64,000 bases of DNA from the NCBI RefSeq assembly GCF_036507355.1, contig NZ_AP027877.1, one strand, 5' to 3'. A program made the position numbers and the translations under genes. Numbering within the stretch: position 1 is the stretch's first letter; every line of letters starts with the position of its first letter. Positions 53,288 to 59,730 of the stretch are shown one piece after another. The notes beneath the pieces were generated by a model. It had not been told where the DNA came from. It worked only from the letters and a program-made list of their open reading frames with translations, and did not search any database. Source of the stretch: Escherichia coli. Its GTDB lineage: Bacteria; Pseudomonadota; Gammaproteobacteria; Enterobacterales; Enterobacteriaceae.

Positions 53288-53634
53288 AAATTCTCCTGTA
53301 AAACGCGGAATATACCGTACCTCTTAGCGGGGAAAAACAGGGTTATGCGGCAACGTCGAAATTAAATGTGATCTGCCACGCCTTTTATCACAAAAGTGTC
53401 TCCGGAAGTACAATGCAAATTTGCCTGGCAAAATAAGGATAATCAACATATTACGAATCGCTGCACACCTGTGCTGATGACTACTGCGCAGAGAAACAAA
53501 TGTGCAAGAGAAAGCGCTATTTCTCCCCATGCAAAGAGTGAAAAATCGCTTTGAAAGGCCATCATGATGGGGTTATATCAGATCAAGCGGTGAGAAAGCG
53601 TATTTGCACAAATGTGCAGAACCAGGAGGCGGCA

Positions 53635-54582
53635 ATGGAAAACAGTGACGATATCCGTTTGATTGTGAAGATTGCCCAACTCTATTACGAACAGGATATG
53701 ACGCAGGCGCAAATCGCGCGCGAACTGGGTATTTACCGCACCACCATCAGCCGCTTGCTTAAACGAGGCCGCGATCAGGGAATTGTCACCATCGCCATCA
53801 ACTATGACTACAACGAAAATCTCTGGCTCGAGCAGCAACTGAAGCAAAAGTTTGGCCTGAAAGACGTTGTGGTGGTGTCGGGAAATGATGAGGATGAAGA
53901 GACTCAACTGGCGATGATGGGGTTACACGGCGCGCAACTGCTGGATCGCTTGCTGGAGCCTGGCGATATTGTCGGTTTTTCCTGGGGTCGCGCGGTGAGC
54001 GCACTGGTTGAAAACTTGCCGCAAGCGGGGCAATCGCGGCAGTTAATCTGCGTGCCAATTATTGGCGGACCGTCCGGTAAACTCGAAAGCCGCTATCACG
54101 TAAACACATTAACCTACAGCGCGGCAGCGAAGCTGAAAGGGGAATCGCATCTCGCGGATTTTCCGGCTCTGCTGGATAACCCCTTAATTCGTAATGGGAT
54201 CATGCAGTCTCAGCACTTTAAAACCATCTCTGCCTACTGGGATAATCTGGATGTCGCCCTGGTGGGAATTGGCTCACCGGCCATTCGCGACGGCGCTAAC
54301 TGGCATACGTTTTATGGTGGTGAAGAGAGTGACGACCTGAATGCCCGCCAGGTTGCTGGCGATATTTGCTCGCGCTTTTTTGATATTCACGGCGCAATGG
54401 TTGAAACGAATATGAGCGAAAAAACACTCTCTATCGAAATGAATAAATTAAAGCAGGCACGATATTCAATTGGCATTGCCATGAGTGAAGAAAAATACAG
54501 CGGAATTATTGGTGCACTGTGTGGAAAATATATTAATTGTCTGGTAACGAATAGCAGCACAGCTGAACTATTACTGAAATAA
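53635..54582 (+). CDS. sorC: SorC-family transcriptional regulator of the sorbose operon
   Basis: ATG at 53635 with SD AGGAGG gives 315 aa (MENSDDIRLIVKIAQLYYEQDMTQAQIARELG...); N-terminal HTH plus sugar-binding domain; track ORF starts at an upstream TTG. Confidence 0.8.
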   Translation: MENSDDIRLIVKIAQLYYEQDMTQAQIARELGIYRTTISRLLKRGRDQGIVTIAINYDYNENLWLEQQLKQKFGLKDVVVVSGNDEDEETQLAMMGLHGAQLLDRLLEPGDIVGFSWGRAVSALVENLPQAGQSRQLICVPIIGGPSGKLESRYHVNTLTYSAAAKLKGESHLADFPALLDNPLIRNGIMQSQHFKTISAYWDNLDVALVGIGSPAIRDGANWHTFYGGEESDDLNARQVAGDICSRFFDIHGAMVETNMSEKTLSIEMNKLKQARYSIGIAMSEEKYSGIIGALCGKYINCLVTNSSTAELLLK

Positions 54583-54651
54583 AAATCTTCCCGATGTTTA
54601 TCGTAATAAAAATTACGGCGGGTCCCTATTATCTAAAATCAGGAGTCTGTT

Positions 54652-55458
54652 ATGCAAACGTGGTTAAATTTGCAGGATAAAATCATTATCGTCACCGGCG
54701 GCGCATCCGGTATTGGTCTGGCGATTGTAGAGGAATTATTAGCACAAGGCGCGAATGTACAGATGGTCGATATTCACGGTGGCGATGGACAATATGAAGG
54801 TCATAAAGGCTATCAGTTTTGGCCGACCGATATTTCCAGCGCCAAAGAGGTAAATCATACGGTAGCGGAAATTATCCAGCGTTTTGGTCGCATCGACAGT
54901 CTGGTCAATAACGCCGGGGTCAATTTCCCGCATCTGCTGGTCGATGAGAAAGCGCCTGCCGGGCAGTATGAACTCAACGAAGCTGCATTCGAAAAAATGG
55001 TCAATATCAACCAGAAAGGCGTTTTTCTGATGTCGCAGGCGGTGGCGCGACAGATGGTCAAACAACATGATGGCGTGATTGTGAATGTTTCCTCAGAAAG
55101 TGGACTGGAAGGCTCAGAAGGACAAAGCTGTTACGCCGCTACCAAAGCCGCGCTCAATAGCTTCACGCGCTCCTGGTCGAAAGAATTGGGTAAACACGGT
55201 ATCCGTGTGGTCGGTATCGCGCCGGGGATTCTGGAAAAAACAGGACTGCGCACGCCGGAATATGAAGAAGCGCTGGCGTGGACGCGCAATATCACCGTCG
55301 AGCAGCTGCGTGAAGGCTATACCAAAAACGCCATTCCTATTGGGCGCGCCGGTAGATTAGCAGAAGTCGCTGATTTTGTTTGTTATCTGTTGTCTGAACG
55401 CGCCAGCTACATCACCGGAGTAACCACTAACATTGCGGGCGGCAAAACGCGCGGCTAA
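54652..55458 (+). CDS. sorD: short-chain dehydrogenase, D-glucitol(sorbitol)-6-phosphate dehydrogenase-type
   Basis: 268 aa; SDR TGGASGIG nucleotide-binding motif and YxxxK active site (YAATKAA). Confidence 0.75.
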   Translation: MQTWLNLQDKIIIVTGGASGIGLAIVEELLAQGANVQMVDIHGGDGQYEGHKGYQFWPTDISSAKEVNHTVAEIIQRFGRIDSLVNNAGVNFPHLLVDEKAPAGQYELNEAAFEKMVNINQKGVFLMSQAVARQMVKQHDGVIVNVSSESGLEGSEGQSCYAATKAALNSFTRSWSKELGKHGIRVVGIAPGILEKTGLRTPEYEEALAWTRNITVEQLREGYTKNAIPIGRAGRLAEVADFVCYLLSERASYITGVTTNIAGGKTRG

Positions 55459-55467
55459 GGAGGCTTT

Positions 55468-55875
55468 ATGGTCAACGCCATTTTTTGTGCCCACGGCAAA
55501 TTAGCTTGCGCCATGCTGGAATCGGTTCAGATGGTTTACGGCAACGCCAATGTTGAAGCCGTTGAATTTGTGCCCGGTGAAAACGCCGGAGACATCGTAG
55601 CAAAGCTGGAAAAGTTAGTAAGCATTCACAATCAAGATGAGTGGCTGATTGCCGTGGATTTACAGTGCGGCAGCCCGTGGAATGCGGCAGCGATGCTTGC
55701 GATGCGCAATCCTCGTCTGCGGGTAATCAGCGGCCTTTCTCTGCCGCTGGCGCTCGAACTGGTTGATAACCAGGACAGCATGAATGTTGATGAACTGTGT
55801 GAACACCTGACGCAAATCGCAAAGCAAACCTGCGTTGTCTGGAAACAACTGGCAACGGCAGAGGAGGATTTCTGA
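55468..55875 (+). CDS. sorF: PTS mannose-family EIIA component (sorbose)
   Basis: 135 aa, EIIA-Man fold; stop overlaps the sorB start (ATGA). Confidence 0.75.
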   Translation: MVNAIFCAHGKLACAMLESVQMVYGNANVEAVEFVPGENAGDIVAKLEKLVSIHNQDEWLIAVDLQCGSPWNAAAMLAMRNPRLRVISGLSLPLALELVDNQDSMNVDELCEHLTQIAKQTCVVWKQLATAEEDF

Positions 55876-58067: not shown

Positions 58068-58118
58068 TTCTTCGCCCCGGCACGACTGCCGGGGCCATCG
58101 CTCAACATGAGGTGGTTT

Positions 58119-59348
58119 ATGAAAACAACAGCTCTGCGTCTTTATGGTAAACGTGATTTACGCCTGGAAACCTTTGACCTTCCTGAAATGCAGGAGGATG
58201 AAATCCTCGCGACGGTGGTCACTGACAGCCTGTGTCTCTCTTCCTGGAAAGAGGCCAACCTGGGTGAAAACCATAAAAAAGTACCCGACGATGTGGCGAC
58301 CAACCCAATCATCATCGGCCACGAGTTTTGCGGCGATATTCTGGCCGTGGGTAAAAAGTGGCAGCACAAATTCCAGCCGGGTCAGCGTTATGTGATTCAG
58401 GCCAACCTGCAACTCCCCGACCGCCCGGACTGCCCCGGCTACTCCTTCCCGTGGGTAGGCGGCGAAGCCACGCATGTGGTTATTCCCAACGAGGTCATGG
58501 AACAAGATTGCCTGCTGGCATACGACGGCGAAACCTATTTTGAAGGCTCGCTGGTTGAACCGCTTTCCTGCGTGATTGGCGCGTTCAACGCCAACTATCA
58601 TCTTCAGAAAGGTAGTTATAACCACACGATGGGGATTCGCCCGCAAGGGCGCATGCTGATCCTCGGCGGCACCGGACCAATGGGGCTGTTGGCGATTGAT
58701 TATGCGCTGCATGGACCCGTTAACCCGTCGCTGCTCGTCATTACCGATACCGACAACGATAAATTGAGTTATGCGCGCAAGCACTATCCATCAGAATCGC
58801 AAACACTGATTCATTATCTCAATGCCACCGATGCAGCATTTGATACGCTAATGGCGCTGAGTGGCGGTCACGGCTTCGATGATATTTTCGTCTTTGTGCC
58901 TAATGAAGGACTGGTGACTCTCGCCTCTTCCTTGCTGGCGACAGATGGTTGCCTGAATTTCTTCGCCGGACCGCAGGATAAACATTTCAGCGCGCCAATT
59001 AATTTCTACGATGTGCATTATGCATTTACCCACTACGTGGGCACGTCAGGCGGCAATACCGACGACATGCGCGCAGCGGTCAAATTGATTGAAGAGAAAA
59101 AAGTGCAGGCCGCAAAAGTGGTAACACATATTCTTGGGCTGAATGCCGCGGGCGAAACCACGCTTGAATTGCCTGCCGTCGGCGGCGGCAAAAAGCTGGT
59201 GTATACCGGGAAATACCTGCCGCTGACGTCACTCACGCAGATTCAGGATCAAGCACTGGCGGCGATTCTGACGCGTCATCAGGGGATCTGGTCCGGTGAG
59301 GCGGAGCAATATCTGCTCACTCATGCAGAGGCAATTTCCCATGATTAA
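58119..59348 (+). CDS. sorE: zinc-dependent MDR-family dehydrogenase, L-sorbose-1-phosphate reductase-type
   Basis: ATG at 58119 with SD GAGGTGG gives 409 aa; last gene of the operon. Confidence 0.72.
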   Translation: MKTTALRLYGKRDLRLETFDLPEMQEDEILATVVTDSLCLSSWKEANLGENHKKVPDDVATNPIIIGHEFCGDILAVGKKWQHKFQPGQRYVIQANLQLPDRPDCPGYSFPWVGGEATHVVIPNEVMEQDCLLAYDGETYFEGSLVEPLSCVIGAFNANYHLQKGSYNHTMGIRPQGRMLILGGTGPMGLLAIDYALHGPVNPSLLVITDTDNDKLSYARKHYPSESQTLIHYLNATDAAFDTLMALSGGHGFDDIFVFVPNEGLVTLASSLLATDGCLNFFAGPQDKHFSAPINFYDVHYAFTHYVGTSGGNTDDMRAAVKLIEEKKVQAAKVVTHILGLNAAGETTLELPAVGGGKKLVYTGKYLPLTSLTQIQDQALAAILTRHQGIWSGEAEQYLLTHAEAISHD

Positions 59349-59479
59349 TCGCACTACTCAACTCTGCATGTCGCTGGCAGGTCGCCGCGGCAACTTCGCG
59401 ACCTGATGTGCGGCTGATTGCTGAAGCGGCCCAATGTGCACGAGAAGGATAAAAAAACATCAGCGCCTTAAGGGGCGCT

Positions 59480-59660
59480 CAAATTGGTGGCAAAGTACAC
59501 ATTGTTTATGCCGGATGCGGAATAAAGCCTTATTCGGCCTACATAATCTCGAAAATTCAATATATTGCAGTTATCTGGTAGGCCTGGTAAGCGTAGCGCA
59601 TCAGGCAATGCTGTGTTTGTCATCAGTCTCAGCGCCCGGTGCAATACGTGACATCGTGAG
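59480..59660. repeat. REP / BIME cluster between sorE and pepE
   Basis: TGCCGGATGCGGAATAAAGCCTTATTCGGCCTACA and GTAGGCCTGGTAAGCGTAGCGCATCAGGCAATG units. Confidence 0.65.
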
Positions 59661-59730
59661 CCATGTCAGTAAGTGGTTAAATTCGCAGTGGTAGCATGCC
59701 TTCCGTGATTTCTTACTAACCGGAGAAGTA

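Follow-up and report, generated by a model that had tools for sequence, protein, structure and literature searches.

The catabolism of L-sorbose through the chromosomal sor operon is established for Klebsiella and Escherichia coli, and the classical map position of the operon in E. coli is near metH. We analyzed this locus in a 64,000-nucleotide stretch of E. coli DNA (contig NZ_AP027877.1 of assembly GCF_036507355.1), referred to below as the window, in which the sor genes occupy positions 53288-59730. The system has already been described and functionally tested in E. coli. The enteroaggregative E. coli (EAEC) strain 042 carries the operon beside rluF and uses L-sorbose, whereas MG1655 lacks the operon and is a non-user, as confirmed by Biolog (PMC2808357). 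The pathway is also set out in a study where deletion of sorD impaired growth on sorbose (PMC13410766). Deletions of sorAM and sorE, together with a knock-in in sequence type (ST) 10, demonstrated that the operon confers sorbose use and competitive fitness and that L-sorbose induces it, and deletion of sorE in ST131 also gives a sorbose phenotype (PMC12817954). SorC acts as both activator and repressor (PMC12817954, citing Wohrl 1990). The window shares its locus and flanks with the operons of the sorbose-positive strains EAEC 042, CFT073, ST131 and ST648, with no substantive difference (PMC2808357, PMC12817954, PMC13410766). Almost certainly, the region is the known L-sorbose operon sorCDFBAME of E. 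coli other than K-12, intact and in the customary rluF-pepE position. In itself the operon is textbook material, included in the annotation of thousands of genomes, and the initial annotation, made before any comparison, was right in calling it a known system (the locus is covered in PMC2808357 and PMC12817954).

Gene content and identity of the sor region

The interval 53288-59730 extends exactly from the start codon of rluF (52415-53287, minus strand; NF007784, 607 bits) to the start codon of pepE (59731-60420; NF003642, 357 bits). Downstream the order is pepE, yjbB and metH, the last beginning 2.6 kb beyond. Seven open reading frames (ORFs) fill the interval in the order sorC-D-F-B-A-M-E, all on the plus strand and none with internal stops. 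The gaps between them range from -1 to 69 nt, most of the starts are preceded by plausible ribosome-binding sites, and the ORF lengths equal those of the RefSeq coding sequences (CDS) in E. coli 08-3914. The first gene, sorC (53635-54582), encodes a SorC-family regulator of 315 residues with helix-turn-helix (HTH) and sugar-binding domains (PF04198 with 266 bits, plus HTH matches). It is followed by sorD (54652-55458), encoding a D-glucitol-6-phosphate dehydrogenase of the short-chain dehydrogenase/reductase (SDR) family (268 residues; NF004817, 497.7 bits against a cutoff of 304), in which the SDR motifs TGGASGIG, NNAG and YAATK are present. The next four genes encode the components of a mannose-family phosphotransferase system (PTS): EIIA (sorF, 55468-55875, 135 residues; TIGR00824, 148 bits, cutoff 98), sorbose-type EIIB (sorB, 55875-56369, 164 residues; TIGR00854, 222 bits, above cutoff), EIIC (sorA, 56435-57232, 265 residues; TIGR00822, 421 bits, cutoff 340) and EIID (sorM, 57243-58067, 274 residues; TIGR00828, 472 bits, cutoff 293). 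The start of sorB overlaps the stop of sorF by 1 nt. The last gene, sorE (58119-59348), encodes a 409-residue protein of the zinc-dependent alcohol dehydrogenase (ADH) fold, a predicted L-sorbose-1-phosphate reductase with weak ADH_N/ADH_zinc_N matches. The Pfam and NCBIfam assignments agree with the seven co-oriented genes and the families listed initially, and the flanking models bear out the placement between rluF and pepE, near metH.

The proteins are closest to those of the sorbose system. SorC is identical to the crystallised K. pneumoniae SorC (PDB 2W48) at 273 of 315 positions (87%) over the full length, with 609 bits, and SorB to the K. pneumoniae sorbose EIIB (PDB 1NRZ) at 138 of 160 (86%), with 303 bits. 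The scores of SorB against other IIB proteins are 170 bits for the ManX IIB and 76 bits for the N-acetylgalactosamine (AgaV-type) IIB. The conserved N-terminal His9 is kept in SorF and His14 in SorB, where it lies in the motif RIDDRLIHGQ, identical to that of 1NRZ. SorE carries the GHE and GTGPMG (GxGxxG) motifs. No NCBIfam equivalog or curated hidden Markov model scored above its cutoff for SorE, which counts against its assignment; the name was given because of 99% identity between the protein and the CDS that RefSeq calls sorE, L-sorbose 1-phosphate reductase (an annotation that stands in loci matching the window at 98.9-99.2% identity), and because of the published knockouts. Between the window and sor-positive E. 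coli, all Sor proteins share 98-100% identity. The initial annotation had named these genes after the Klebsiella operon and had given a best homology to some other mannose-family PTS as the result that would refute this; the comparison was run, the sorbose proteins came out best, and the identity as sorCDFBAME holds.

The operon of K. pneumoniae (Lengeler group) thus has the same seven genes in the same order as the window, and in the sampled Klebsiella species it is found at the same rluF-pepE site. The ManXYZ system of E. coli shares with the window PTS the family, the EIIA/B/C/D architecture and the phosphohistidine motifs; however, it is a paralogue and not an orthologue, as is seen from the IIB scores (170 vs 303 bits). 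Unlike in ManXYZ, EIIA and EIIB are separate proteins in the window, and ManXYZ has no linked SorE, SorD or SorC.

The mechanism established for Klebsiella and E. coli is extended to the window genome by orthology. SorF, SorB, SorA and SorM would import L-sorbose and phosphorylate it to L-sorbose-1-phosphate, SorE would reduce this to D-glucitol-6-phosphate, and SorD would oxidize the latter to D-fructose-6-phosphate, which enters glycolysis. SorC, the product of the first gene, would act as an activator when L-sorbose is present and as a repressor when it is absent.

Residence at the rluF-pepE site and the empty allele

A scan of species-representative genomes for SorE gave 80 loci, onto which the window proteins were mapped. 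The order yjbD-rluF-sorCDFBAME-...-pepE-yjbB-metH was found in E. whittamii, E. albertii and other Escherichia, in Pseudocitrobacter, many Citrobacter, five Klebsiella, Raoultella, Enterobacter spp. and Cedecea, and rluF adjoins sorC in 26 of the 30 enterobacterial loci with upstream coverage. In 11 taxa the mean nucleotide identity of sor lies within ±3 points of that of pepE, yjbB and metH (Spearman 0.88-0.90). Shared synteny, together with a sor divergence that tracks the flanks, argues for vertical inheritance of an operon that is old at the site. The sor operon is probably an old resident, ancestral at the rluF-pepE site in the Enterobacteriaceae, and the K-12 state is an absence rather than an unaltered target.

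The composition of the locus is in keeping with this: the GC content varies between ~0.43 and 0.57, with no break beyond the ordinary gene-to-gene variation, and the marks of a genomic island (integrase, insertion sequence (IS), tRNA, direct repeats) were not found in the ORF list or at the sor borders. By the usual criteria the sor region is not a mobile island.

In a megablast search of positions 53000-60000 against 5,426 complete E. coli genomes, the whole region was found at 97-99.2% identity in 2,865. The best match is at 99.2%, and the exact allele of the window is absent from the complete RefSeq genomes. The closest genome at the sor locus, E. coli Z1323CEC0004, carries an IS1A in sorF that splits the EIIA gene (3469-4652 of that locus), a natural knockout of the operon. 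A single empty allele is carried by 2,557 complete genomes (~47% of E. coli), including the K-12 derivatives, and is near-monomorphic (2,523 of the 2,557 at ≥99% identity to K-12). In the K-12 derivatives C600, ER3413 and ET12567 rluF lies directly beside pepE, with their ends 211 bp apart, as the initial annotation had stated for K-12; its statement that the operon marks the genome as non-K-12 is also borne out. The endpoints are now defined: homology to K-12 ends at 53323 and resumes at 59641, so that 6,317 bp (53324-59640) stand against 86 bp in K-12. In published surveys sor is present in more than 86% of the genomes of most phylogroups, and in only ~10% of those of phylogroup A and 12% of those of B1 (PMC12817954).

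The initial annotation had described the operon as an insert at a recombination hotspot, and the corresponding alternative is that the operon was acquired horizontally, by insertion into an ancestral K-12-like site that captured it repeatedly. Several observations favour it and weigh against long residence. In the 211-bp K-12 spacer there are the outer ends of both intergenic regions and no sor DNA, as would also be expected of an untouched target. The inner 86 bp are homologous to the outer ends of both sor-flanking intergenic regions of other taxa and are nearer to the Citrobacter/Klebsiella/Kluyvera consensus than the Escherichia sor-positive allele is, while the adjacent flanks are ~98.6% identical. 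As judged from this alignment, a single deletion in a window-type allele does not account for the K-12 empty allele. At the same site Salmonella (rluF-DUF2058-pepE) and Kluyvera (rluF-higBA-like-pepE) have other cargo and no sor, so that several losses, or gains, are required. The identity of Pseudocitrobacter to E. coli is raised by 7-8 points over rluF-sorE, suggesting exchange between genera. Against an insert stand the same position and orientation of the operon in at least seven genera, the equal divergence of sor and its flanks in the 11 taxa, the absence at the borders of a compositional break, integrase, IS, tRNA or direct repeats, the contrast between a near-monomorphic empty allele and diverse sor-positive alleles (95-99%), and an absence of sor mainly in phylogroups A and B1 (PMC12817954). 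Taken together, we consider the insertion unlikely and the polarity implied by the word insert probably backwards. The hotspot is upheld in so far as the rluF-pepE cargo differs between genera; within E. coli there are two main alleles only.

With the operon read as an old resident, the empty allele may have been imported, or may derive from a deletion in an unsampled haplotype. The 86 bp private to K-12 gave no BLAST match in the window and are thus not a sor remnant, and no intermediate allele with the K-12 spacer was seen in E. coli among the matches listed. A search for sister Escherichia through PepE relatives (92-93% identity) led to short metagenome contigs, which carry the window-type sor-positive allele and were uninformative.

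The sdhL-pepE stretch is hypervariable among the genera (0.9 to 9 kb, with unrelated ORFs). A pair of HTH_37/Gp49 (HigA/HigB-like) genes in the rluF-pepE gap of Kluyvera (8120-8786) is homologous to a pair between sdhL and pepE in Citrobacter FP75 (about 12280-12950; 73% nucleotide identity over 817 nt), and Kluyvera looks accordingly like the Citrobacter FP75 arrangement minus the whole sor-sdhL block. The Pseudocitrobacter loci are 86-93% identical to the window DNA over yjbD-rluF-sorCDFBAME (about 4000-11230 of these loci) and 80-86% identical in lysC, pepE, yjbB and metH, a pattern that suggests an old exchange of a segment between Pseudocitrobacter and Escherichia, whose breakpoint would lie between sdhL and pepE.

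The sdhL remnant and the pepE-proximal spacer

In almost every other sor-positive taxon, sorE is followed by a gene for a protein of 260-270 residues. This gene, sdhL, encodes an SdhL-type shikimate-dehydrogenase-like protein: the intact product scores 444 bits with NF009202 (cutoff 306) and 361 bits, over the full length, with HI0607 of Haemophilus influenzae (PDB 1NPY), although in H. influenzae the gene is not linked to a sorbose operon. Its ATG overlaps the stop codon of sorE in an ATGA arrangement, which we read as translational coupling, in Escherichia, Pseudocitrobacter, Citrobacter, Klebsiella, Raoultella, Enterobacter and a Serratia sp., and the RefSeq start of the intact gene in E. 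coli JNEC-KY178 is this overlapping ATG.

When the window is aligned with E. whittamii, Escherichia sp. MOD1 and E. albertii, a remnant of sdhL is seen at 59341-59452 (plus strand). Its ATG (59341) overlaps the stop codon of sorE (ATGATTAA), and a 5' part of 57 nt (59341-59397) is joined to a 3' part of 55 nt (59398-59452), ending at the original TAA (59450-59452), through an internal deletion of 701 bp (junction 59397/59398), which causes a frameshift and leaves an ORF of 21 codons with TGA at 59404-59406. In comparison with HI0607, only these 57 + 55 nt are retained, a non-functional remainder. An intact sdhL after sorE, with extra cargo before pepE, is found in K. michiganensis, K. grimontii, K. 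oxytoca, K. spallanzanii and K. indica, whereas the window has the remnant and a repeat element only.

Within E. coli an intact sdhL was found in only 177 complete genomes (ST648-like). In the literature the gene has been noted beside the sor operon only in ST648, where it is sorbose-induced (PMC12817954). The cross-genus data suggest that sdhL is ancestral, in which case the published ST648-specific view would be inverted. We tentatively propose that the ancestral sor unit had eight genes, that most E. coli lost sdhL by the one 701-bp deletion, and that SdhL may act on a keto-sugar or polyol related to L-sorbose; as a whole this is a possibility more than an expectation. The initial count of seven genes is correct for the intact ORFs, and on this proposal it would describe a derived state, in which only the ends of the eighth gene are kept.

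Just past the sdhL stop lies a GC-rich hairpin, AGCGCCTTAAGGGGCGCT (59462-59479), conserved in other Escherichia species. It is a candidate terminator of the operon, with a T-run on the minus strand only. It is followed by a bacterial interspersed mosaic element (BIME) at 59510-59606, composed of a repetitive extragenic palindrome (REP) GCCGGATGCGGAATAAAGCCTTATTCGGCCTAC (59510-59542), a linker of 35 nt (59543-59577) and an inverted REP (59578-59606). The linker contains the motif AATTCAATATATTG, resembling a site for the integration host factor (IHF), and the unit is built like the known BIME/REP elements of E. coli, with two inverted REPs and a linker with an IHF-like motif; the linker motif suggests the BIME-1/RIP subtype. 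There are 10 REP cores in the window, where 0.49 would be expected, and a query with the BIME unit matches 30-66 places per E. coli genome, in agreement with a multi-copy element. The empty-allele homology resumes beyond it, in the pepE-proximal intergenic DNA (59641-59730, plus strand), which is 95.6% identical to K-12. The REP/BIME cluster named at first as the downstream bound of the insert is thus real, but it is itself part of the non-K-12 segment, located at the downstream end, and the same spacer also holds the sdhL remnant. In E. albertii (about 3600-4250 of its locus) four tandem BIME units (REP-linker-REP plus ~60 nt) are found between sdhL and pepE, compared with one in the window, and a pepE-proximal block that is kept by K-12 and lost from the window is retained. 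Between pepE and yjbB, a sub-threshold Rfam match to naRNA4, a REP-derived nucleoid-associated RNA, was obtained at 60427-60494 (47 bits against a gathering threshold of 59.5), and this spacer has a REP core at 60461-60470.

Upstream region, expression and neighbouring variable sites

To our knowledge the sor operator has not been defined so far. The rluF-sorC intergenic region (53288-53634, plus strand), of which only 53288-53323 is common to K-12, was aligned across 22 taxa for a footprint, and several near-invariant blocks stand out from the diverged surrounding sequence. The first is a candidate CRP-like half-site, TGTGATC (53367-53373), near-invariant across the genera; a degenerate homologue of this block remains in the K-12 empty allele. 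The equally conserved block CACAAAAGTG (53389-53398) lies downstream of it. A candidate IHF site, AATCAACATATTA (53441-53453), matches the established IHF consensus WATCAANNNNTTR, and its AATCA..ATTA core is kept in all the aligned taxa. Two conserved candidate SorC boxes follow, the palindrome GCACACCTGTGC (53463-53474) and the half-site CAAATGTGCAA (53497-53507). The candidate sor promoter, TTGAAA (53551-53556) and TATATC (53574-53579) separated by 17 nt, sits inside the invariant blocks CTTTGAA...GGTTATATCAGATCA. Downstream of it, 16 nt before the sorC ATG, there is a perfect palindrome, TGCACAAATGTGCA (53605-53618), invariant in nearly all taxa and a candidate repressing SorC operator. All these elements are on the plus strand.

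This arrangement suggests how the operon may be controlled. Transcription would start from the conserved TTGAAA-17-TATATC promoter. SorC-family regulators bind their operators as tetramers (PMC11229326), and SorC, a tetramer like the other family members, would repress through the leader palindrome TGCACAAATGTGCA, whereas the related boxes 80-120 nt upstream would serve in activation (or looping). The conserved IHF-consensus and CRP-like sites would lie further upstream, suggesting additional control. Against the operator speaks the count of the palindrome GCACANNTGTGC in the window, 2 against 3.4 expected (with at most one mismatch), which is not above chance, so that the assignment rests on conservation. 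A scan for consensus promoters and terminators gave counts no higher than in shuffled sequences; it missed the TTGAAA-17-TATATC promoter because the -10 hexamer ends in C, and the promoter it proposed at 53385-53414 was rejected, with its -10 hexamer in a non-conserved stretch. An Rfam scan of 51500-60600 found nothing within the sor operon, its sole match being the sub-threshold naRNA4/REP-like one between pepE and yjbB. In Citrobacter spp. and K. indica an insertion of ~126 nt (213 nt in Enterobacter JUb54) separates the rluF start from the conserved sor upstream region; it is presumably similar to the enterobacterial repetitive intergenic consensus (ERIC/IRU) repeat.

A structurally intact operon might still be silent here if it had a regulatory or missense defect. 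The phenotypes and the induction described for sor come from other strains, which counts for such a defect and against an active operon, and the IS1 within sorF of the best-matching genome demonstrates natural inactivation in a relative. In the window, however, all seven ORFs are full length with intact catalytic and phosphorylation motifs, all the conserved regulatory blocks are present, and the proteins show the 98-100% identity to those of sor-positive E. coli given above; a silent operon is therefore very improbable. The idea of another mannose-family PTS cluster (fructoselysine/glucoselysine, N-acetylgalactosamine or mannose) merely resembling sor, which could draw on the generic mannose/fructose/sorbose models for EIIA-D, was rejected with near certainty on the orthology of SorC and SorB to the Klebsiella sorbose proteins, their best full-length PDB matches (609 and 303 bits), with the aga and man equivalogs scoring far under their cutoffs, the pathway-specific SorE (so named in RefSeq) and SorD in the same operon, and sorbose phenotypes of E. 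coli knockouts (PMC12817954, PMC13410766).

Other presence/absence sites are found close to the operon. Three genes between lysC and yjbD (48721-51613) are missing from K-12 and E. coli 08-3914; they encode a zeta-toxin-family P-loop protein (48721-49656, plus strand), an RlaP nucleotidyltransferase (49689-50489, minus strand) and a slipin/Band-7 protein (50486-51613, minus strand). The segment is present in ~1,431 of 5,425 complete E. coli genomes, RlaP and Band_7 lie beside lysC in Kluyvera too, and all three genes are found in Escherichia sp. MOD1; a PADLOC scan of the three-gene island (48721-51613) gave no matches. The genes yjbD and rluF abut (stop codons at 52414/52415), as in 08-3914, whereas an additional 132 bp separates the two in K-12. 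The yjbD of the window (52142-52415 region) has diverged unusually far from other E. coli, with 93.7-95.2% nucleotide identity and 18-19 differences per 149 nt, compared with ~99% for its neighbours. In the sdhL-intact strain JNEC-KY178 two hypothetical genes (149 and 106 residues) lie between yjbB and metH (11233-12045 of its locus), and their absence from the window and K-12 marks another small presence/absence site.

In general, finding the operon points to a source of the window other than K-12, an E. coli probably outside phylogroups A and B1 and expected to ferment L-sorbose. For the presence/absence polymorphism, old residence with the spread of one empty allele is a better reading than insertion, and the cross-genus footprint supplies testable SorC, IHF and CRP sites, as well as a promoter, for sor. 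The pseudogene remnant in what had been taken for a spacer links the orphan enzyme SdhL to sorbose metabolism and offers a lead to its function. Recent papers tie the sorbose trait to the competitive fitness and virulence of high-risk lineages.

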